Part shown: positions 3,016 through 47,002 of the stretch, one piece after another
How positions within the stretch are numbered: the stretch's first letter is position 1
Layout of the letters: each line of letters opens with the position of its first letter
DNA from: Spirochaetota bacterium
GTDB taxonomy: Bacteria; Spirochaetota; Spirochaetia; DSM-27196; PWMO01
Length of the DNA: 57,620 nucleotides
Assembly: GCA_009908925.1 (NCBI GenBank)
Contig: JAAAOH010000318.1
Span: forward strand, 1-57,620
Direction of reading: 5' to 3'
Notes under the pieces: generated by a model
The model's database searches: none
Seen by the model: only the letters and a program-made list of their open reading frames with translations
Told to the model about the DNA's origin: nothing
Translations under genes and position numbers: made by a program

Positions 3016-3959
3016 GACGGTTTACCTATCTGGCAGCGCGATACAGTACGCTATTCATCCTCCTGGGGCTGGTACTCCTCTTCTCGCTCACCTCCGGTCG
3101 ATTCCTGCGAGTGGGCAATCTGCTCAACATTGTCGAACAGTCGGCGCTGCTCGGCATCGTGGCGATCGGGGTTACCTTTACCATTATCTCCGGCGGCATA
3201 GACCTGTCGGTGGGATCGCTCGTTGCCTTCTCCGGCGCACTTGCTGCGGGCTTCATGGTGCGGATGGGAATGCCGCTTGCCGCGGCACTGGCACTGGCTG
3301 TCGCTGCCGGTGCCGCCCTCGGCTTCGTGAACGGCTTCTTCATCGTAAAGGGCGGCCTGCAGCCCTTCGTGGCCACCCTGGCCATGATGGCGATCGCGCG
3401 TGGACTGACGCTTATCTACACGCAGGGACAACCGATCTCCGGGATGGGAGACAGCTTCACCGCCCTCGGCTCGAACTGGGGGCCGATCCCGGTTCCGGCC
3501 GTCATATTCGTGGTCATCTTCATACTGAGCCACATTGTGCTACAACGTACGCCCTACGGCGCGTACATCTACGCGGTCGGCGGCAACGAAGAGACGGCAC
3601 GGCTGGCCGGTATAAACGTCCAGCTCGTCAAGCTTTCCTCCTACGTCGTCAGCGGCTCTCTGGCGGCCGTCGGTGGTATCGTTCTGGCCGCGCGCTTGTG
3701 GAGCGCCCAGCCGCAGGCGGCAAGCGGGCTGGAGCTGCAGGCCATCGCCGCCACCGTGCTCGGCGGCGCGTCACTCATGGGCGGCGCCGGAACGACCGTG
3801 GGCACCTTTGCTGGTGCCCTCATCATGGGTGTGCTCGCGAACGGCTTGAACCTCATCGGCGTATCCTCCTACATACAGCAGGTCATAACCGGCGCCATAT
3901 TCATACTCGCGGTCATGCTCGACATGTGGACCAAGCGGAAAGAGCGGGCAACGGCTTGA
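3012..3959 (+). CDS. rbsC: sugar ABC transporter permease
   Basis: GTGA overlap with rbsA. Multi-span hydrophobic protein with the RbsC-type motif GGIDLSVGS and C-terminal YAVGGNEE.ARL.GI. Confidence 0.88.
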   Translation: MRRFTYLAARYSTLFILLGLVLLFSLTSGRFLRVGNLLNIVEQSALLGIVAIGVTFTIISGGIDLSVGSLVAFSGALAAGFMVRMGMPLAAALALAVAAGAALGFVNGFFIVKGGLQPFVATLAMMAIARGLTLIYTQGQPISGMGDSFTALGSNWGPIPVPAVIFVVIFILSHIVLQRTPYGAYIYAVGGNEETARLAGINVQLVKLSSYVVSGSLAAVGGIVLAARLWSAQPQAASGLELQAIAATVLGGASLMGGAGTTVGTFAGALIMGVLANGLNLIGVSSYIQQVITGAIFILAVMLDMWTKRKERATA

Positions 3960-30518: not shown

Positions 30519-33403
30519 GAACGACGTCTCGCGTGAACGGGGTACAGCGGCAACTCGACCACGAGCCCGGAGACAGCCTTCTAACCGCGCTTCGATCCAA
30601 CGGGGTAACCGGTCCGAAGCGGGGCTGTGAGGCCGGCGACTGCGGCTGCTGCACCGTATGGATCGACGGCGAGGCGGTGCAGTCCTGCCTCTTCCCGGCC
30701 TTTCGTGCGGGGCATCGTCAGGTGACGACGATCGAAGGGCTTGCCCGCGTCTCCGGGGCGGCCGTCGTCGGCCATAGGACTTTGCCCCTTCATCCGGTTC
30801 AACAGGCCTTTCTCGACGAAGAGGGATATCAGTGCGGCTACTGCACCGCCGGGATGATCATGACCCTCGCATCCCCAGGGGCGGAGCGCTGCGACGGCCT
30901 CGGGGCACGGACGAAGGGAAATATCTGTCGCTGTACCGGCTGGAAATCCATCGAGCGGGCCGCGCATGCGGTCGAGGAACCCCGGCAGGCGGCGCTGCGC
31001 GAGGAGGAGACCGCCGGTGGTGTCGGCGCATCGGTTCCGAACCGTCATGGCCCCGACATCGTGAGCGGGGTCCCCTCCTTCACGAGTGACTTCCATGACG
31101 AGCTCCCCGGAGACGCAGAGCTCCTCCATATCGCGGCGGTTCGCTCGCCGCATGCCCATGCCGAGATCCACCGCGTAGACGCGGCCGCGGCGCTGGCCAC
31201 CGACGGCGTTATCGATGTGTTCTGGCACGAGCATGTCCCGCGCGTACCCTACACGACTGCCTGCCACCCCGCAGAGCCGCGAGATGCCTTCGACACCTAT
31301 CTGCTCGACAATCGGGTTCGGTTCGTCGGGCAGCGGGTAGCCATCGTCGTAGCAGAGTCGGTGCAGGCGGCGCGGCGTGCCGCCCGACGTGTCCGCGTGG
31401 AGTACACGGTACTCCAGTCTGTTATTGATCCGAGAGAGGCGCTCCGCGAGGGCGCGCCCGTTATCCATCCGGAGGCGGAGTCAACGCAGATTGCCGATCC
31501 GTGCCGCAATCTCATCGGTGAAATACGCTACCGACGGGGGGATGTGGAGGCCGGCCTGGCGGCGGCCGACGAGACCGTTGAGCTCGAGGTAGAGACGCCG
31601 CGGCAGCAGCACACCCATCTCGAGCCTCATACAGCGACGGCCTGGGTGGAGAATGACGGAACGTCGGAGGGGCTGCTTGTCGTGCGCACGAGCACACAGG
31701 TCCCGTATCTCACCCGGCGCACGCTCGCGCGCTCCCTCGGCCGAACGGAGGAGAGCATCCGCGTCTTCAAGCCGCGCGTCGGCGGGGGGTTCGGCAACAA
31801 GCAGGAGGTACTCTGCGAAGACCTCGTGGCGTTTACGGCGCTGCGGCTCGGGAGGCCGGTGAGCTGGGAGCTCTCTCGTGACGAGGAGTTCATAGCCACG
31901 AACACCCGCCACCCCATGATCCTCAGGGTTCGCGCGGGCGCCACGCGTGCCGGAGCTCTCACCGCCCTGTGTCTGGACTTCCTCGCCACCGGTGGGGCTT
32001 ACGGGAATCACTCCTATGACGTGCTCGAATGCGGCGCTTTCGAATCCCTTGCGTTGTACACCTGCGATGCCAAGGAGACCCATGGTCGTGCCGTGTATAC
32101 GAATACCGTGCCGGCCGGTGCCTTCCGCGGCTACGGTGCGGCGCAGACCACTTTTGCCGTGGACTCCGCGCTCGACGAGCTGGCCCTGAAACTTGGGATG
32201 GATCCCTGGGAGTTTCGACGCATGAACGTGGTGGGGCCCGACTCACCACTTCATCTCGGGCAGGAGGCGGACGCGTCGCACCGCCTCGGCGGCTATGCAC
32301 TCGACCGATGCCTCGACTACGTGCAGCGTAGGCTCAACGAGCTCGACGCCGCCGGAGAGGCGCATGCCGCGTCGAGCGGGAGCACCGAGTGGCGCTACGG
32401 CAGCGGGTTCGGTGTCTCCACGGTGGCCAGCGGGCTCGCCGATATCCATGTCTCCGGTGCAACCGCCGAGCTCACCGAGAGCGGCGTGCGGATCTGCACC
32501 GCTACCGCTGATATCGGCACGGGCTCGGATACGACCCTCGCGCAGATTGCAGCCGAAACGCTCGGCATCGGCTTCGACCGCATCGAGCTTCAAAGCGGAG
32601 ACACCGCCCGTGCTCCCGAAGACTCCGGTGCCTACGCATCCGCAACGGCCTATATCGGTGGCCGTGCGGTTGCGCTTGCTGCCGAACGCCTGCGGGAACG
32701 AATCCGTAAGCTCTCGGCAATCGTCCATGCGAGTGACCCGGAGGAGCTCGAGCTCACCGATCAGGGGATCGTGCGGCGTCCCGCGCGCCCAGGGGATGAC
32801 GGAGGCCGACCGACGAGGACCGTGGGCTTTGCCGAGCTTCTGCAGGCTGCGAAGGAGGCCGGTACGACGCTTCGGGCGAGCTCCGAGAGCGTCTCCTACC
32901 AAAGCGTGTCGATGAGCTTCGCCGTGGTGGGCGTGCATCTTCGCTGCCATGTTCCCACCGGGAGGGTCGAAGTCCTGGACGTGGTCCAGGGTGTCGACGC
33001 CGGACGGCTTCTGAATCCGCGCATCGCGCGTGCCCAGGCGGAGGGTGCTACCGCTCAGTCCATCGGCTATTCACTGAGCGAAGAGCTCGTCATAGACGAC
33101 AGCGGGAGGGTGGAAAATCCGACGTTTCGCGAGTATCGTGTACCCGCAGTGGGAGACATTGGTCCCATGGAGACGGTATTTTTCGAGGATCCCGACGATG
33201 CGGGCCCGTTCGGGGCGAAGGCGTTGGGTGAGCTCACCACCACTGCCGCACCTGCAGCGGTTGCCAACGCGGTCAGGCGCGCGATCGGGTCGCGCCCGAC
33301 GCGGTTGCCGCTGACCGGTGAGACCGTGTGGCGGCTGCTGAACGACGCAACAGCAAAAGGAGGGCCGGTTCATGAGAAAGCAGACCGAGCTTCTCGGAAG
33401 TAG
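30515..33403 (+). CDS. second XdhD-type fused [2Fe-2S]/molybdopterin hydroxylase, substrate unknown
   Basis: CEAGDCGCCTV, QCGYCTAGMIM and CRCTGW, followed by large-subunit motifs GGGFGNKQ (not GGGFGGKE), GAFRGYGAAQ and GAKALGE. 962 aa. Confidence 0.85.
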   Translation: MRTTSRVNGVQRQLDHEPGDSLLTALRSNGVTGPKRGCEAGDCGCCTVWIDGEAVQSCLFPAFRAGHRQVTTIEGLARVSGAAVVGHRTLPLHPVQQAFLDEEGYQCGYCTAGMIMTLASPGAERCDGLGARTKGNICRCTGWKSIERAAHAVEEPRQAALREEETAGGVGASVPNRHGPDIVSGVPSFTSDFHDELPGDAELLHIAAVRSPHAHAEIHRVDAAAALATDGVIDVFWHEHVPRVPYTTACHPAEPRDAFDTYLLDNRVRFVGQRVAIVVAESVQAARRAARRVRVEYTVLQSVIDPREALREGAPVIHPEAESTQIADPCRNLIGEIRYRRGDVEAGLAAADETVELEVETPRQQHTHLEPHTATAWVENDGTSEGLLVVRTSTQVPYLTRRTLARSLGRTEESIRVFKPRVGGGFGNKQEVLCEDLVAFTALRLGRPVSWELSRDEEFIATNTRHPMILRVRAGATRAGALTALCLDFLATGGAYGNHSYDVLECGAFESLALYTCDAKETHGRAVYTNTVPAGAFRGYGAAQTTFAVDSALDELALKLGMDPWEFRRMNVVGPDSPLHLGQEADASHRLGGYALDRCLDYVQRRLNELDAAGEAHAASSGSTEWRYGSGFGVSTVASGLADIHVSGATAELTESGVRICTATADIGTGSDTTLAQIAAETLGIGFDRIELQSGDTARAPEDSGAYASATAYIGGRAVALAAERLRERIRKLSAIVHASDPEELELTDQGIVRRPARPGDDGGRPTRTVGFAELLQAAKEAGTTLRASSESVSYQSVSMSFAVVGVHLRCHVPTGRVEVLDVVQGVDAGRLLNPRIARAQAEGATAQSIGYSLSEELVIDDSGRVENPTFREYRVPAVGDIGPMETVFFEDPDDAGPFGAKALGELTTTAAPAAVANAVRRAIGSRPTRLPLTGETVWRLLNDATAKGGPVHEKADRASRK

Positions 33404-34136
33404 GACGCGTGTCGAGGCGCGCTACGCGCTTATTCCGCTCGACGGCATCCCGCTTTCACGCCTGCCGGCGTGGCCCGATGCGGAGGTACAGGTGCTCGCA
33501 GCTCCGGCTCTCGGTGCGCAGTTCGCCGAGTACCGGATTCACATGCCGCCCGGCACCGGGGGTGCGTACGGCGCCGATGGAGAGACCGAGCACTTCCTTT
33601 TCGTGCTCGACGGTGCGGTGGAGCTCGGCCTCGAGTCCGGCACCGGCACCGGGGCCCACCGACTTGATTCAGGCGGCTATGCCCTCATCCCGCCGAGCGC
33701 GGGCTACCGAGTTCGTGCCGCCGAGGATACGACCCTTCTTCTGCTTCGCAAGCGGTATGAGCCCCTGCCCGAGGTCGAGGAGTTCGAGGCGCTCATCGGG
33801 TCCCAGCAGGACGTTCGCGGCGAAGTCTACATGGGGGACGAGGGAGCGCTCTTGCAGTCGCTCGTTCCCAAAGACTTCTCCTACGACCTCGCGATGAACA
33901 TCTTTACCTTCGAGACCGGGCACAGCCTGCCGGTTACCGAAACCCACGTTATGGAACACGGTTTGTACGTGCTTGCCGGAAAGGGGTTGTACTACCTCGG
34001 AGGTACCTGGATGGAAGTGAGAGAAAGCGACTTCATCTGGATGGGGCCCTTCTGTCCCCAGAGTTACTACGCGACCGGGCCCGAGCCGACTCGCTACATC
34101 TACTACAAGAACGTGAATCGCGAAATACCCCTCTGA
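33372..34136 (+). CDS. allE: (S)-ureidoglycine aminohydrolase (bicupin)
   Basis: Collinear with E. coli AllE/YlbA as remembered: two cupin halves, ...E.F.FV..G...L, ET.HVMEHGLYVL.G.G.Y.L...W..V...DFIWMG, YIYYK.VNR. Confidence 0.85.
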   Translation: MRKQTELLGSRTRVEARYALIPLDGIPLSRLPAWPDAEVQVLAAPALGAQFAEYRIHMPPGTGGAYGADGETEHFLFVLDGAVELGLESGTGTGAHRLDSGGYALIPPSAGYRVRAAEDTTLLLLRKRYEPLPEVEEFEALIGSQQDVRGEVYMGDEGALLQSLVPKDFSYDLAMNIFTFETGHSLPVTETHVMEHGLYVLAGKGLYYLGGTWMEVRESDFIWMGPFCPQSYYATGPEPTRYIYYKNVNREIPL

Positions 34137-34156: not shown

Positions 34157-35140
34157 ATGAACGAGAAGATTTACCGCGACGACGACGTGGATGAGTCCGT
34201 ACTCGACGGGAAGACCATAGCGGTCATCGGCTACGGCATTCAGGGAAAGGTTCAGGCAATGAACGCTCGCGACTCCGGTTGCAGCGTCATCGTCGGGACC
34301 CGCCCCGCCTCCCGCAGCCGATCCCGCCGGGAGGCGGAGGCCGACGGCTTCGAGGTCCGCGACTACGCCGAGGCCGTATCGAAAGGCGATGTACTGCTCA
34401 TCGAGCTCGCCGATCCGGCGCAACCACCTGTCTACGCCGAATCCATCGAGCCGAACCTGCGTGCCGGACAGACCCTCGTCTTCTGTCACGGATTCAACGT
34501 GCTTTACGGCTCCATCAAGCCGCCGGAGAATGTGAACACGGCCCTCTTCGTGCCGAACGCGCCCGGCGCTTTTGTCCGCGAGAAGTATCAGAATGGCGAG
34601 GGCATCTACGGATGTATCAGCGTAGACCACGATGCCACGGGAAATGCGCGCGAGATCGCGCTTGCCGTATCCAAGGTGGTCGGATCGACGCGTGCCGGTG
34701 TAGTGGAGCTGACGTTCCAGCAGGAAACCGAAGGCGATAACTTCGAGGAGCAGATCCTCTACGGCGGGGTAATCCACCTCATGCGGTTGTGCTTTCAGAC
34801 GATGGTGAACAACGGCTACCCGGCGAGCTTTGCCTACGCGAAGTCGATCCGATCGCTTCGCAGTGTGATCGACGTGATGGACGAGCACGGGATCGAGGAC
34901 TACCTGACCGGCCGCTCGAGCCGAACCTGCGAGTTCGCGGTCCGTACTCGGGGGCCGCGGGTCATAAACGACGAAGAGGTAGCAAAGATCTTCGCCGAGA
35001 CCGAGCAGGGCATCTTTGCGCGCGACTGGATGCAGGAGTGGCAGCTCGGCATGCCCCAGATTCATCGCCTACGGAGAGCCCAGGCCGACACCACCATGGA
35101 GCAGACCGGCCGGGACTGGCGCGAGCAGTTCGGCGTATGA
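34157..35140 (+). CDS. ketol-acid reductoisomerase-fold (class I KARI-like) oxidoreductase paralogue
   Basis: Full-length collinearity with class I IlvC: LDGKTIAVIGYGIQG, LVFCHGFNV, TFQQETEGDNFEEQ. Several canonical catalytic motifs are replaced (see finding). AAAGGAG RBS. Confidence 0.8.
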   Translation: MNEKIYRDDDVDESVLDGKTIAVIGYGIQGKVQAMNARDSGCSVIVGTRPASRSRSRREAEADGFEVRDYAEAVSKGDVLLIELADPAQPPVYAESIEPNLRAGQTLVFCHGFNVLYGSIKPPENVNTALFVPNAPGAFVREKYQNGEGIYGCISVDHDATGNAREIALAVSKVVGSTRAGVVELTFQQETEGDNFEEQILYGGVIHLMRLCFQTMVNNGYPASFAYAKSIRSLRSVIDVMDEHGIEDYLTGRSSRTCEFAVRTRGPRVINDEEVAKIFAETEQGIFARDWMQEWQLGMPQIHRLRRAQADTTMEQTGRDWREQFGV

Positions 35141-36837
35141 CGGAGCACGGGAGCGCCGACCCGATCAGCGCCTCGCAGATCAGTGCCGAGCGCATCGCCG
35201 CCGATATCGAGGCGATCGCCGGCTTCTCCGAGAGCCCGGCTGAGATCGGCTACAGTCGCCCCACTTTCACGAGCGCCTGGAAAGCCGCCAGGGACTACGT
35301 GATCGAGCAGGCAGAGAAGGCCGGCGCCGAACACGTGATTGACGCTGCGGGCAACGTGCACGTCCGCCATCCGACGGTGGGCTGGGATAGCCCGGTATGG
35401 CTTTCCGGCTCTCACCTCGACTCCGTGCCGTCAGGCGGTAAGTACGATGGCGTGATGGGAGTGGTCATCCCCCTCGAGATTCTGCGGGTGCGTCCCGACC
35501 TGCCCCTCGAGCTGGTGATATTCTGCGAAGAGGAGGGGACGACGTTCAACCTCGGCATGATCGGAAGCCGCGCCTGGACCGGGGCGGTGGACGTAGAGAC
35601 GCTCGAGCGCCTAACCAATCGTGACGGGCAGACTGTTGTCGAGGCGGGAACGCCGTACGGGCTCGACGTCGAGCGGCTCAGAGCCGCGGCGGCCGCAGAC
35701 CCGGCCTCGGCACCCACGGGTGTGCGCTGGACCGACCGGATCGACCCGCAGCGCTACATCGGCCTCGTCGAGGTGCACGCCGAGCAGGGGGTGAGCCTGT
35801 GGGACGCAGGGGTTCCCCTTGCGGCGGTGGACCGGATCAACGGCCGGCGACAGTTCGAGGTCACGGTTACCGGGCACGCAAATCACGCGGGCTCCACCGG
35901 GATGCAGGGCAGACGCGATGCGCTCGTCGGCGCTGCGGAGATGGTAGCCGCCATTGAGACCCTCGGGCTCGAGCTTGATGCGGATCTCCCGTACTCGGTC
36001 TGCACGGTCGGAAGGCTCTCGGTGGCACCGGGGGCGGCAAACGTCATACCCGGCGAGGTCGGGTTCTCGGTGGATATGCGGGGCCAGCAGGAGGAGCTTC
36101 TCGAGCGCGGGGAGACCGCCCTCCGCGAGCGTCTCGCCGGGATTGCCGGGCGCCGTGGTCTGGACGTCCACGTGGGGCGAAGCGAGCATATCGCGCCGTC
36201 GCCGTTGTCGTCGAAGATCGGTCGTGCCCTGCAGGCCGCCGCCGCGGAGCTTGGTCTCGAGATTCCCATTCGGCCGAGCGGTGCTCTCCACGATGCCGCC
36301 ATCGTCGCTGAGCATGTGCCGACGGCCATGGTCTTCGTGGCAAGCCGCGGCGGCATCAGCCACAACCCGGAGGAGTTCAGCGCGAGTGACGACATCGCGC
36401 AGGCGGCGGCGGTGCTGCTTCGTATGATCGAACGCATCCCGACGGGGCGGCGAGCGGACAGCCGGCCGGAGATGCGATCACCCTCGGAGAGCTCAACGCG
36501 ATGCCCCACGACCGGGCGGTTGACTGCTGCAGCGGATTCTTCGAGCGGTCTCCGTGGATCGTCGAGCAGGCACTTCGCGGGCGGCCCTTTCGGTCGCTCC
36601 CGGCACTCCACGGCGCGTGCATGCGTGTCATCGAAGAGGCCGGTGAGGACGCGCAACTTGCCCTTATTCGGGCGCATCCGGACCTCGTCGGGCGCCTCGC
36701 GAAACAGGGGCGTCTGGGTGCGGAGTCCACCCGTGAGCAGGCAGCCGCCGGTCTTGCCGAGCTCAGGCCCGCGGAAGCGGAGACCTTTGACCGCTTCAAC
36801 GCCGCGTACCACGAGCGGTTCGGATTTCCATTCGTGA
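35137..36837 (+). CDS. allC: allantoate amidohydrolase (M20). Homology ends near 36445 and the rest is stop-less read-through
   Basis: ATGA overlap with the KARI-like gene. AllC pattern: SGSHLDSVP.GG.YDG, EEEG..F, VTVTGHANHAGSTGM..R.DA, ALHDAAI...VPTAMVFV.S..GISHNPEE. No in-frame stop occurs until 36835-36837. The listed ORF start at 34789 is spurious. Confidence 0.8.
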   Translation: MTEHGSADPISASQISAERIAADIEAIAGFSESPAEIGYSRPTFTSAWKAARDYVIEQAEKAGAEHVIDAAGNVHVRHPTVGWDSPVWLSGSHLDSVPSGGKYDGVMGVVIPLEILRVRPDLPLELVIFCEEEGTTFNLGMIGSRAWTGAVDVETLERLTNRDGQTVVEAGTPYGLDVERLRAAAAADPASAPTGVRWTDRIDPQRYIGLVEVHAEQGVSLWDAGVPLAAVDRINGRRQFEVTVTGHANHAGSTGMQGRRDALVGAAEMVAAIETLGLELDADLPYSVCTVGRLSVAPGAANVIPGEVGFSVDMRGQQEELLERGETALRERLAGIAGRRGLDVHVGRSEHIAPSPLSSKIGRALQAAAAELGLEIPIRPSGALHDAAIVAEHVPTAMVFVASRGGISHNPEEFSASDDIAQAAAVLLRMIERIPTGRRADSRPEMRSPSESSTRCPTTGRLTAAADSSSGLRGSSSRHFAGGPFGRSRHSTARACVSSKRPVRTRNLPLFGRIRTSSGASRNRGVWVRSPPVSRQPPVLPSSGPRKRRPLTASTPRTTSGSDFHS

Positions 36838-36983
36838 TCTGCGCGCGGAAGAACCGGAAGAATGCGATTCTCGAAGCCTTCCCGAAGCGGCTCGAACACG
36901 AGCGCACGGAAGAGATTGCTACCGCGATCGGGCAGATCGGCGAGATTGCGTGGTTGCGCATGTCCGACGCCATCGTGGACTGA
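36501..36983 (+). CDS. uraD: OHCU (2-oxo-4-hydroxy-4-carboxy-5-ureidoimidazoline) decarboxylase. Homology extends upstream of the only start codon
   Basis: FERSPWIVEQA, RPF.S, IRAHPDL, S..EQA.AGL, FN.AY..RFGFPFVIC and R motifs. The frame is open from 36390 and encodes ITLGELNA before ATG 36501. Confidence 0.8.
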   Translation: MPHDRAVDCCSGFFERSPWIVEQALRGRPFRSLPALHGACMRVIEEAGEDAQLALIRAHPDLVGRLAKQGRLGAESTREQAAAGLAELRPAEAETFDRFNAAYHERFGFPFVICARKNRKNAILEAFPKRLEHERTEEIATAIGQIGEIAWLRMSDAIVD

Positions 36984-37016: not shown

Positions 37017-37910
37017 ATGGCAGTTCTGAGAGACAATTCCTACGGGAAGGAACGGGTCAGGCTGACGAAGATTGTGCGTGACGAGTCGGGCGGCTCGACG
37101 CCCCCGGTCCATCACGTCTACGAGTACACCGTCGAGATCATGCTTCACGGAGCCTTCGATCGGGTGTATACCGATGCGGACAACTCCGCATGCGTTCCCA
37201 CCGACACGATGAAGAACACCGTGTATGCGGTGGCTCGCACGAGCACGTTTTCCTCTCCAGAGCAATTTGCCGATGCGCTCTCGGGCCGCTTCATCGACCG
37301 CTTCGAGCAGGTAGAGGGGGTCGATATCGAGTTAGAGGCCCAACGCTGGCGCCGCATCGAGGTGGACGGAGCGCAGCACCCGCACGCCTTCGAGAAACAG
37401 CATGGCACGCGGACGGCCGTCATATCCCGTCGAGGTGCAGATGCGGCATCCTCGCAGTCGGCTCTGTCAGGCGGCATCCGCGGTATGGAGGTCTTCAAGA
37501 GCACGGGCTCGGGCTTCACGGGGTTCTACCACGACGAGTACACGACCCTGCCTGAAACCGAAGACCGTATCCTTGCCACCACCGTCGACGCGGAGTGGGA
37601 CTACGGTGCCGGCGTGGACATGGCGGGCACGGACTTCGATAGCGTTTGGGAGACGATCCATCACACCGTCGCGCGGGTCTTCGCGAAGCATGACAGCCCG
37701 AGCCTACAGGCGACCCTCTGGGAGATGGGCACCGCAGTCATCGGGGAGGTGCCGGTCGTGGACTCCATCAGCTTCTCCATGCCCAACCAGCATCACATCC
37801 GCTTCGACTTGAGCGCGTTCGGGCTCGACAACCCGAACGAGGTCTTCTACGGAACCGACTCACCGTTCGGCATTATCACCGGCACGGTCGATCGTGAGGA
37901 GGAAACATGA
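37017..37910 (+). CDS. urate oxidase (cofactor-independent uricase)
   Basis: Collinear with Arthrobacter/Bacillus uricases as remembered: YGK..VRL.K, V.TDT.KNTVYA.A, HAF, TAV, KSTGS.F.GF..D.YTTL.ET.DRILAT, MPN.HH, DNPNEVFY. Confidence 0.88.
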   Translation: MAVLRDNSYGKERVRLTKIVRDESGGSTPPVHHVYEYTVEIMLHGAFDRVYTDADNSACVPTDTMKNTVYAVARTSTFSSPEQFADALSGRFIDRFEQVEGVDIELEAQRWRRIEVDGAQHPHAFEKQHGTRTAVISRRGADAASSQSALSGGIRGMEVFKSTGSGFTGFYHDEYTTLPETEDRILATTVDAEWDYGAGVDMAGTDFDSVWETIHHTVARVFAKHDSPSLQATLWEMGTAVIGEVPVVDSISFSMPNQHHIRFDLSAFGLDNPNEVFYGTDSPFGIITGTVDREEET

Positions 37911-38260
37911 GCGCAAAACTGAGTACGCACGTGCTCGACACCGCCTCCGGGCGGCCTGCCGGCGGCGTAGCGCTTGAGCTGTGGCGAAAAGCGGCGGAGG
38001 AGTGGGAGCTCGTGATCACGGCGCGGACCAACGCCGACGGCCGCACCGACGGCCCGCTGCTGTCCGGAGACAGAATCGAGCCGGGCGACTACCGGCTCGT
38101 GTTCGATGTTGCCTCCTATTTTCGCGCGCAGGGCCACCCGGATGCCGGCGTGTTTCTGACCGAGGTGCCGCTTGCCTTCCGGATTTCCGACGCGGGCGCC
38201 GGCTATCACGTTCCGCTGCTCGTCTCGCCCTGGTCCTACACCACTTATCGGGGGAGTTGA
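37907..38260 (+). CDS. hiuH: 5-hydroxyisourate hydrolase (transthyretin-like)
   Basis: 117 aa with LSTHVLDT..G.PA, YHVPLL.SP..Y.TYRGS and the diagnostic C-terminal YRGS. Confidence 0.9.
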   Translation: MSAKLSTHVLDTASGRPAGGVALELWRKAAEEWELVITARTNADGRTDGPLLSGDRIEPGDYRLVFDVASYFRAQGHPDAGVFLTEVPLAFRISDAGAGYHVPLLVSPWSYTTYRGS

Positions 38261-38263
38261 GCC

Positions 38264-39640
38264 ATGGCGTACGAGCTACTGATTCGCGGCGGGACGGTGG
38301 TGACGGCGGAGGGCGTCGAGGTTGCCGACATCGGGATCGAAGACGGCCGGATCGCCGAGGTTGCCGGTGAGATGAGTGGCGGGCGCGGTCCCGGCACGCA
38401 GGAGATCGATGCCCGGGGGCTTCACGTGTTCCCGGGCGTCGTGGATGCCCATGTGCACTTCAACGATCCCGGGCGCGACCATTGGGAAGGCGCGGCCACC
38501 GGTTCGGCGGCGCTCGCAGCAGGCGGGGGCACCGTCTTCATCGACATGCCCCTCAACTCATCCCCGCCCGTCCTCGACGGCGCATCCTTCGACGCCAAGC
38601 TCCAGGCCTGCGAAGGGCGATCCTTCACCGACTTTGCGCTCTACGGGGGGCTCACCCCCGTGAATCTCGATTCCATGGAGGAGCTCGCCGAGCGGGGCGT
38701 TGCCGGCTACAAGGCCTTCATGTGCCCGAGCGGCATTGACGATTTCCAGTGGTCCGACGACGTCACGCTGTACCGCGGCATGGAGATCGCCGCCCGGGCG
38801 GGGCTGCCCGTGCTCCTCCACGCCGAGAGCGCGCCTATCCTTGCCGCGCTGAGTGCAGCGTCTCAGGGTTCCGGGGAGGGACCGGGCGCCGCGAACGCCG
38901 GCGCCGGCGGTGCGCCAACCGCCGTGCGCCGCTTCCTCGACTCGCGGCCGGTCATTGCCGAGCTCGAGGCCATCAACCGGGCGCTTCTCTTCGCCGAGGA
39001 GACCGGCTGCCGAATTCACGTCGTCCACATCACCAACCGCCGCGGTGTCGAGCTCATCCGTCGGGCCGTTGCCGGCGGCCGGGTCGACGCGTCCGCCGAG
39101 ACCTGTCCCCACTACCTGTTCTTCACCGACCGGGACATGGAGACGATCGGCGCCCGAGCGAAGTGCGCGCCGCCATTGCGCGAGGAGGACATTCGCCGCG
39201 GCCAGATCGAGGCCCTGCTCGCCGGTGAGATCGACACCGTGGGCTCGGACCACTCGCCGGCGCCGTCGGACATGAAGGACCGCGAGGATTTCTCTACCGC
39301 CTGGGGGGGCATCCCGGGTGCCCAGACGACGCTACGCACCCTGCTGACGGTGGAAATACCCCCGGAGCGCATCGCGGCGGTGGCCGCACAGAATCCAGCC
39401 GAGCGCTTCGGACTGGCGGGGAAGGGCCGCATCGAAGTGGGCTACGATGCCGACCTCGCGCTGGTGCGTGTCGATACCGAGGCTGAGCTTACCAGCGACG
39501 AGCTTCGTGACCGCCATCGGCTGAGTCCCTACTTGGGGCGCAGGTTGTGCGGCCACGTGGAGCGGGTCCTGCTTCGGGGACGCGAGGTAGACGACACGCC
39601 GCGCGGGCGGTTCCTCCGGCCGGCTGACGCGCGGCGCTAG
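38264..39640 (+). CDS. allB: allantoinase
   Basis: DAHVHFNDPGR.HWEG, GG.T...DMPLN, LLHAE, HVVHI, ETCPHYL, GSDHSP.P, WGGI.G.Q and RH..SPY.GR, collinear with E. coli AllB as remembered. Confidence 0.9.
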   Translation: MAYELLIRGGTVVTAEGVEVADIGIEDGRIAEVAGEMSGGRGPGTQEIDARGLHVFPGVVDAHVHFNDPGRDHWEGAATGSAALAAGGGTVFIDMPLNSSPPVLDGASFDAKLQACEGRSFTDFALYGGLTPVNLDSMEELAERGVAGYKAFMCPSGIDDFQWSDDVTLYRGMEIAARAGLPVLLHAESAPILAALSAASQGSGEGPGAANAGAGGAPTAVRRFLDSRPVIAELEAINRALLFAEETGCRIHVVHITNRRGVELIRRAVAGGRVDASAETCPHYLFFTDRDMETIGARAKCAPPLREEDIRRGQIEALLAGEIDTVGSDHSPAPSDMKDREDFSTAWGGIPGAQTTLRTLLTVEIPPERIAAVAAQNPAERFGLAGKGRIEVGYDADLALVRVDTEAELTSDELRDRHRLSPYLGRRLCGHVERVLLRGREVDDTPRGRFLRPADARR

Positions 39641-44964: not shown

Positions 44965-45906
44965 TTACGGTACGATGTGGGTGTCGGACTCGCCCTCGAG
45001 GGCGGCCGCAAGATGCTCCGGGTCGGTGATGATGCCCTGGCGGCCGGTCGCTTCGACGAACTCTATCATCGTCTGGATCTTCGGCAGCATGCTGCCGCGC
45101 GCAAAGTGGCCGTCGGCCGTGTAATCCCGCGCCGCAGCGACACTCATCTCCTCGACGGCGCGCTGGACGGGTTTCCCGTAGTTCAGATAGACCTTCTCAA
45201 CTGCCGTGGAGATGACGAAGCGATCTGCCCCGAGGCTGCGGGCAAGCAGGCTCGCGGCGAGGTCCTTGTCGATGACCGCCTCCACGCCGGCGTAGCTTCC
45301 GTCCGGGGTGCGGATGACGGGGATCCCGCCGCCGCCGGCGGCGATGGTTATGGTGCCGCTTTCGACGAGCTGACGGATGACCGGTAGCTCGAGGATCTCG
45401 AGCGGGCGCGGCGAGGGCACGACCCAGCGCCAGCCACGCCCCGCGTCCTCGGCAACAGCCCACCCGTCTCGGTCGCGGCGAGCCATGGCCTCCTTCTCTG
45501 ACATGAAGGTTCCGATAGGCTCCGACGGATCTGAAAAGGACGGGTCCGCCTCGTCGACGAGCACCTCGGTGACGATTGTCAAGACATTGCGTTGCTGCTC
45601 GAGTCCGCCGATGACGTTACGGATGGCGGTCTGGATATTGTAATCGAGGGCACCCTGAGTATCGGCCACGCAGGAGTCGAGCGGTACCATGTGCAGCTCG
45701 GCTGCCCCGAGCTGGGCTTGCCGGAGGATGAAGCTCACCTGCGGGCCGTTTCCGTGCACGATAGCGATACGATGGTCGGAAGCGCGCACCGGCCGGAGGT
45801 TGCGGGCGGTTGCAAAGGCCGCCTCGTACTGGGCCGGAACGGTGACGTGCTGCGCGTCGGTGATGAGTGAGTTCCCGCCGATGGCGATGACGATGGTTTC
45901 GCTCAC
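44965..45906 (-). CDS. arcC: carbamate kinase
   Basis: IAIGGNSL, VHGNGPQV, GGGGIPV and the ...DKDLA..LLA... pattern. 313 aa. Confidence 0.9.
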   Translation of the reverse strand: MSETIVIAIGGNSLITDAQHVTVPAQYEAAFATARNLRPVRASDHRIAIVHGNGPQVSFILRQAQLGAAELHMVPLDSCVADTQGALDYNIQTAIRNVIGGLEQQRNVLTIVTEVLVDEADPSFSDPSEPIGTFMSEKEAMARRDRDGWAVAEDAGRGWRWVVPSPRPLEILELPVIRQLVESGTITIAAGGGGIPVIRTPDGSYAGVEAVIDKDLAASLLARSLGADRFVISTAVEKVYLNYGKPVQRAVEEMSVAAARDYTADGHFARGSMLPKIQTMIEFVEATGRQGIITDPEHLAAALEGESDTHIVP

Positions 45907-46882
45907 GTTGCCTCCAGCGGCATGAACTCGAAGGCGGCCACGTCGAAGAGGCCCATGTCCGTAAGCTTGATCTCGGGGATCACCGGAAGCGCCATGAAGG
46001 AGAGGGCCGTGAAGGGGTCGATGTCACGTCGTACCCCGAGGCGCTCGCGTGCAATCTCGGTGAGCGCCGCCATCCGCCGGCTGAGCTCCTGTGCCGGCTC
46101 ACCGGTCATGAGCCTGGAGATCGGCAGGGGCAAGCTCTCGAGCACTTCACCGTCTGCAACGATGCACATCCCTCCGCCGATACGAACGAGCTCTTCGGCT
46201 GCGCGGAGCATGTCCGCATCCGAATCCCCGAGGATGAGCAAGTTGTGCGAGTCGTGTGCGTTGGTTGTGGCCATCGCACCGCCGCGCGCACCGAAACCGC
46301 GTATGAGGCCCAGGCCGCCACTGCCGGTCCGGCGGTGGCGCTCGATCACGTTCACGGTGTCGCCCTGCAGCGGGAGGGAGAAGTCGGTCTCGGTGATCAA
46401 TGCGACGTTCACCGTGTCGGAGACCTTCGCCCGATCGGGCACACCTACCGAGAACAGTGGCGCGCCATTCTCGGCTGCAAGCTCGCCCCGCTTGAAGACA
46501 TCCCGAACCCGGAAGTCGGTGAGGTCGTCTACCACCGCCAAGTCTGCAAGCATTCCCGGCGCAAGGGCGCCACGGCCGTGCGGAGGTTGTAGTCGATGTG
46601 GCCCTCCGCTATGAGGTCCGCCGGCTGCTTGTCGTCGGTGCAGAATGCGCAGAGGTGTGCGGTATGCGGGTCGACCCCCTCGATGAGGGTCGTGAGGTTG
46701 CGAGCAGCCGAGCCGTCGCGAATGAGCACGCGCATGCCGAGCCCCCCGATCAGCCCGTCGTCAACGGCCACGTCGGTCTGCAGAACCTCGTGTGTGTATA
46801 CGTTTACCACCCGGGTATTCTTGAGTACCAGCGTGGCGGGTCTCCTGCACGTGGCGACCTCGATCAAACGGCCTCTGTTCAT
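45903..46882 (-). pseudogene. ade: adenine deaminase pseudogene (internal deletions plus frameshift)
   Basis: The N-terminal ~50 aa (LVLKNTRVVNVYT.EV...DVAV.DG.I.G.G) are joined directly to the IR.GSAA.NL...F.TDD....DL...GHID segment. The catalytic HxH-containing core is therefore missing. A second gap and a frame change near 46553-46575 precede the intact-looking C-terminal domain (GALAPGMLADLAVVDDL ... ATTNAHDSHNL...). Confidence 0.75.
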
Positions 46883-47002
46883 ACGTGCTCCTTGACGCCC
46901 ACGCTCTGCGTCGCTCAACAGTATAGCCCTTCCCGCCGGGCGCGCAAGGAAGAACCAATCTTGACAGCCGTCGTGTGCAGTCATAGGCTCGCGCTACGAG
47001 CT

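Follow-up and report, generated by a model that had tools for sequence, protein, structure and literature searches.

A probable single-nucleotide deletion in a widespread allantoate amidohydrolase-OHCU decarboxylase fusion gene of a Spirochaetota bacterium

The window analysed here, a stretch of 57,620 nucleotides from a Spirochaetota draft genome, carries a ureide/purine-catabolism operon in which a gene of a known fusion family most probably lacks one nucleotide; whatever the cause, we take this to be a trivial deletion and put the probability of this reading at roughly 0.93. The locus is orthologous to a bifunctional gene that is widespread and in which an AllC-like M20 amidohydrolase (~432 aa) is followed by a short, variable linker and an OHCU decarboxylase (UraD, ~170 aa). 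Where the linker begins, the ancestral sequence has GAA-ACG (Glu-Thr); here one A of these two codons is missing, at positions 36431-36432. Read literally, the sequence would specify the whole AllC domain with 134 junk codons behind it, and a UraD domain in the -1 frame that has no proper start; no designed mechanism would be involved. As recorded, the two domains do not lie in one uninterrupted frame, and the locus is a broken, pseudogene-like member of its family. The fused architecture in relatives, the position of the indel and the purifying selection on the uraD frame are shown by the data; how the deletion arose, and how it affects expression, we infer.

The family was delineated by searching the 615-aa read-through protein against a collection of 5.8 billion proteins, which returned 1,374 matches. 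In 96 of the best 120 of these 1,374 matches, the Pfam domains PF01546 and PF09349 are found together in one protein of 550-627 aa, and the fused proteins among these best 120 derive from Spirochaetaceae, Spirochaetota, Planctomycetota and Verrucomicrobiota/Chthoniobacterales. The best match (P0002) is 86% identical across 100% of the query (88% in the multiple alignment) and is encoded within an identical gene order of cupin, ketol-acid reductoisomerase (KARI), fusion, uricase, HIUase and allantoinase, and the alignment is unbroken across the junction in 16 relatives. Single-frame fusions are likewise encoded in four of the 40 GTDB relatives examined, one of them in the same genus (G005; the others are G011, G014 and G016). 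The preliminary description of this DNA was aware of no fused allantoate amidohydrolase/OHCU decarboxylase; judging from these sequences, the fusion is in fact an abundant and known architecture, named as such by annotation pipelines, and not a new one. Its suggestion of a disrupted or mis-assembled AllC-UraD fusion has, on the other hand, been borne out, as the equivalent place of the operon is occupied in relatives by one unbroken gene for an M20-UraD protein. Intact relatives of the P0002 type share with the window the domain order, 86-88% identity, the place between the KARI paralogue and uricase, and the residues MIE-THPDG at the linker start, but they do so in one continuous open reading frame, while in the window the gene is divided over two frames by the absence of one A where the Glu and Thr codons meet.

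A comparison of orthologous loci had been proposed with that description as a check, and it yielded in-frame fusions in the closest relatives, separate genes in one genome and a frame broken elsewhere in another. The separate genes are found in a genome of the same order and another family (G035), where allC and uraD lie 12 nt apart (locus L011, G035:C277, 16182-18043), allC with a stop codon of its own and uraD with its own ATG 17 codons ahead of the LN motif. The two genes follow each other in the same order as in the window, which has neither such an ATG nor such a stop, and this layout likely represents the pre-fusion (or post-fission) arrangement. The AllC-UraD orthologue in a draft genome of the same family (G017; locus L010, G017:C80, ~3018-3030, minus strand) is frame-broken too, with a break that falls within the M20 domain, at DSVPSG|GKYDG.

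In the window, the break maps to 36431..36432 on the plus strand, where a run of two A stands in place of the three found in the closest relatives (GAACG versus GAAACG). The junction reads ATGATCGAACGC, compared with ATGATCGAAACGC in the closest relative, and the DNA alignment between them has a single gap near the junction, with ATGATCG-AACGC in the window and ATGATCGAAACGC in both L002 and L003, the loci of the closest relatives. A36432 closes the GAA (Glu) codon of the AllC frame and at once opens the ACG (Thr) codon of the uraD frame; MIE, read in the former, and THPDG, read in the latter, flank the break and jointly match the MIETHPDG of P0002, and the frame favoured by codon usage changes from that of AllC to that of uraD at ~36436. 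The AllC homology, which had been thought to reach ...RIPTG (about 36445), ends at ...LLRMIE (36432), and RIPTG is THPDG read out of frame: it occurs in no relative, and [ST/A]HP is present in 9 of the first 11 aligned relatives.

The two frames are one base apart, and one base added anywhere in the linker yields a continuous protein of 615 aa. It was proposed earlier that a single G added to the G4 run at 36444..36447 (plus strand) would restore the protein; this stands insofar as any linker base does so, but the lesion is the A run at 36431-36432. The G4 run, which arises from the linker codons GAC-GGG-G(CG) 13 nt downstream of the lesion, was considered as its site and rejected, as L002 has the same run in frame (GAC GGG GTG) and the uraD frame already gives THPDG ahead of it. 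Over 13.7 kb the window is collinear with L002 at 84% identity, and across this distance the missing A is the sole isolated coding indel that is not divisible by three, the remaining indels being multiples of three, compensating clusters or intergenic. From this pattern it follows that the contig is not riddled with indels and that a chimeric join is ruled out; a mis-assembly of that kind at the junction was also rejected on the grounds that collinearity runs straight through it, interrupted by no more than the 1-nt gap.

The AllC-like M20 part extends over 35137..36432 on the plus strand (432 codons, from an ATG that overlaps the stop codon of the KARI-like gene 5' of it, to the GAA of ...LLRMIE). 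Its frame, as had been noted before, has no stop at the end of the homology and stays open as far as TGA 36835-36837, which gives a reading frame of 566 aa. Pfam recognises a Peptidase_M20 domain (PF01546, 58 bits, residues 91-432) with an inserted M20 dimerisation domain (PF07687, 34.9 bits, residues 236-334). Of the NCBIfam models, the family-level TIGR01879 alone is passed (301 bits against a cut-off of 204); the best named matches are allantoate amidohydrolase models, and their scores stay below the respective cut-offs (at best 345.6 against 399 for NF006771, a subfamily model, and 195.7 against 597.75 for TIGR03176), so that we describe this half as AllC-like, going by its best matches and operon context. 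Relative to L002, it shows 89.6% amino acid identity and a dN/dS of 0.10. The rest of the open reading frame, at 36433..36837 on the plus strand, is an out-of-frame tail of 134 Arg/Ser/Pro-rich codons and the TGA at 36835-36837, which overlaps uraD; the 134 residues are homologous to nothing, and a stop-free stretch of 134 out-of-frame codons is unremarkable at 65-69% G+C.

The linker (THPDGAASGQPAGDA) and the OHCU decarboxylase domain occupy 36432..36983 on the plus strand in the uraD frame, with a stop codon at 36981-36983. The domain begins 21 codons past the end of the M20 homology and matches Pfam OHCU_decarbox (PF09349) with 155.9 bits over profile positions 1-154 of 155 and NCBIfam TIGR03164 with 172.7 bits against a cut-off of 96.25. 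The invariant UraD motifs HPDLVG, EQ and FPFVICA are kept (H514 P515 D516 L517, E534 Q535 and F564-A570 of the read-through protein). When linker and UraD are compared with L002 in the uraD frame, dN/dS is 0.13-0.15, a value that indicates purifying selection on the UraD part as read in its own frame. The low dN/dS, together with the intact motifs, implies that the UraD domain was kept coding until very recently, and that the break is therefore either young or not real.

Whether the missing A is an error in the draft consensus or a very recent, near-neutral mutation is a matter of roughly even odds. In favour of an artefact, the genome is a metagenome-assembled draft of 375 contigs, 82% complete and with 6% contamination, a crude codon-usage scan brought up three other frame-broken genes, and the orthologue in G017 is broken as well. 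The scan found 4 candidates among ~1,976 gene-like open reading frames, which is a lower bound because its sensitivity is low (breaks with an out-of-frame tail of fewer than 30 codons escape it), and it does not distinguish errors from real mutations; with earlier settings, 175 candidates were swamped by antisense shadow ORFs, and a stricter version missed the AllC-UraD locus. The three further breaks affect a GAF/PAS sensor histidine kinase whose Pfam domains are split over the frames (contig C32, ~10194, plus strand), an argC gene whose Semialdhyde_dhC_1 match is divided between the two frames, with profile positions 1-72 and 117-165 (C273, ~1987, plus strand), and a gene of the metallo-beta-lactamase fold of which Pfam matches the upstream piece alone (C180, ~1372, minus strand).

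In favour of a real mutation, the assembly is short-read-like (N50 of 11 kb, no Ns), frame breaks are rare genome-wide and no other frame-breaking change lies in the surrounding 13.7 kb, and an adenine deaminase gene nearby looks truly degraded. A change from A3 to A2 is also atypical as a short-read error. No conspecific sequence was found: two exact DNA patterns, allowing GAACG or GANACG, had zero matches in the metagenome and genome contig collections, and the search of 5.8 billion proteins contained nothing that was >90% identical.

If the deletion is real, UraD would be obtainable only by internal initiation at ATG 36501, as a protein of 160 aa without TLGELNA. The uraD frame is closed upstream by a TGA at 36387..36389 (plus strand), 5' of which no uraD start is possible, and it is open from 36390, whence it reads ...THPDGAASGQPAGDAITLGELNAMPHD... 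(also given as ...THPDGAASGQPAGDAITLGELNAMPHDRAV...). As the preliminary description had correctly observed, ATG 36501 is the first start codon in this frame, with zero ATG, GTG or TTG codons between 36390 and that point. It was right, too, in placing the conserved UraD N-terminus upstream of this ATG: the OHCU_decarbox profile starts at an N (36495) two residues ahead of Met 36501, and the reverse-order fusion model NF010373 aligns from an I (36477) eight residues ahead of it, so that the ATG sits 2 Pfam positions, or ~8 conserved residues (TLGELNA), inside the UraD domain. A GGAG at 36486-36489 lies 11 nt before this sole canonical start of the uraD frame (36486..36503, plus strand), and ATG 36501 may, on this inference from the sequence, be used as a start.

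These features bear on a scenario in which a true deletion has become fixed and the fusion is now splitting up (fission), leaving an AllC with a 134-aa junk tail and a UraD that is either made separately from ATG 36501 or lost. We regard this as possible, though rather unlikely; it is a sub-case of the main reading, namely its branch of a real mutation, and not exclusive of it. A start at ATG 36501 would cost the Pfam profile just 2 positions and the GGAG is in place, but neither the ATG nor the codons around it are newly evolved start signals: they are ancestral, NAMPHD being found in P0002 too, and the standalone UraD of G035 begins 17 codons ahead of the LN motif. That G035 has adjacent, separate allC and uraD genes indicates that both arrangements are viable, and fission would also fit with a short-read-like assembly, with the few frame breaks and with the seemingly true degradation of the adenine deaminase gene nearby; against this, dN/dS is unrelaxed, and any fission must therefore be very recent.

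Frameshifting, which had been left as an option in the preliminary description, finds no footing in the data. It would consist in a programmed -1 shift (e.g., of tRNA-Gly on G_GGG at 36444-36447) that yields AllC by itself and AllC-UraD at a constant ratio, and a -1 slip on G GGG would indeed regain the uraD frame within the variable linker. However, the relatives examined all have in-frame fusions or separate genes, and L002 carries the G4 run in frame; neither the junction (ATC GAA CGC) nor the sequence around the G4 run (C CCG ACG GGG C) contains an X XXY YYZ heptamer; and the 98 nt downstream fold with a minimum free energy of -39.9 kcal/mol, compared with a mean of -39.0 kcal/mol for shuffled sequences (z = -0.28). 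The ancestral THPDG is, moreover, read upstream of G4 in the uraD frame, which places the lesion at the A run rather than at a slip site. We consider it most improbable that GAACG is correct and that low-level -1 slippage on the linker G_GGG yields some full-length AllC-UraD, thereby setting a ratio of AllC-only to bifunctional protein.

Two ordinary genes, with uraD starting from a non-canonical ATC (36477) or CTC (36483) and AllC bearing a long, overlapping C-terminal extension, could be conceived, given that the uraD frame contains no stop from 36390 onwards and shows homology 5' of ATG 36501, but this is scarcely credible: the tail in the AllC frame has no match, codon usage in this stretch speaks for the uraD frame, the uraD frame ahead of such starts still reads the linker of the relative (THPDG..AGDA), and ATC and CTC are, as a matter of general knowledge, very rare as start codons.

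Under the main reading of a deletion in a known fusion gene, the locus should be annotated as one frameshifted AllC-UraD gene, rather than as two genes, a 566-aa amidohydrolase and a shortened UraD. Since OHCU is converted spontaneously to racemic allantoin by decarboxylation, the absence of UraD would have a nearly neutral effect over a short period should the deletion be real, and the locus would then offer a small example of the splitting of a fusion gene, tolerated since OHCU decays on its own.

UraD domains have been joined repeatedly to enzymes of the ureide pathway, and the window conforms to this pattern, which is usually explained by co-expression and a fixed stoichiometry. UraD is fused to uricase in PucL of Bacillus subtilis. 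It is fused to allantoicase, a partner different from the AllC of the window, in the proteins described by the NCBIfam model NF010371, and to Urah in the 'allantoin synthase' of plants, diatoms and some bacteria (PMC13751858). In the window, the partner AllC acts two steps past UraD, with allantoinase in between, so that the fused steps are non-consecutive; this joining of non-consecutive ureide steps is a property of the AllC-UraD family and not of the window locus.

A model with the same two domain families is NCBIfam NF010373 (PRK13799, 'unknown domain/N-carbamoyl-L-amino acid hydrolase fusion protein', 591 aa), which pairs an OHCU-decarboxylase-like domain with an M20 amidase of the hydantoinase/carbamoylase family but in the reverse order to the window, the UraD-like domain being N-terminal. 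Both halves of the window gene match it, with 215 and 133 bits, which is far under its cut-off of 1087 bits, and the gene is not a member. The examined passages of the review (PMC13751858) make no mention of an AllC-UraD pairing, and a search of the full-text literature, where absence is not proof, returned no description of it, while Urah-Urad, UraD-uricase-type and similar fusions are described; the AllC-UraD family may thus be under-described in the literature.

The operon as a whole has a G+C content of 63-69%, and its genes, all on the plus strand, cover much of the pathway on either side of the fusion. Upstream, at 33372..34136, lies a (S)-ureidoglycine aminohydrolase of the bicupin type (TIGR03214, 270 bits against a cut-off of 200), which catalyses the step following AllC. 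Downstream are a uricase (37017-37910, Pfam Uricase), a HIU hydrolase (37907-38260, Pfam Transthyretin) and an allantoinase (38264-39640, Pfam Amidohydro_1; TIGR03178, 485 bits against a cut-off of 358), which together (37017..39640) account for the steps around UraD. The enzymes for the step before AllC, allantoinase, and for the step after it, ureidoglycine aminohydrolase, are thus both present in one operon and both above their NCBIfam cut-offs.

Further along the window, a remnant of an adenine deaminase gene is found at 45903-46984 on the minus strand, adjoining a carbamate kinase gene (44965-45906, minus strand). It comprises a 216-aa open reading frame that matches Adenine_deam_C alone (174 bits) and, upstream, one of 151 aa without a Pfam match; it seems to be devoid of the catalytic amidohydrolase core, and the gene appears to be truly degraded.

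Between the ureidoglycine aminohydrolase gene and the AllC-UraD gene, at 34157..35140 on the plus strand, the operon encodes a class-I KARI paralogue of 327 aa (Pfam KARI_N and KARI_C; TIGR00465, 275 bits). A second ilvC gene, on contig C225 of the same genome, scores better than this paralogue, whose position is kept in the closest relatives (5021-6004 in L002 and 3323-4306 in L003). We speculate that it may serve as an oxidoreductase for an intermediate of the ureide pathway, such as ureidoglycolate.
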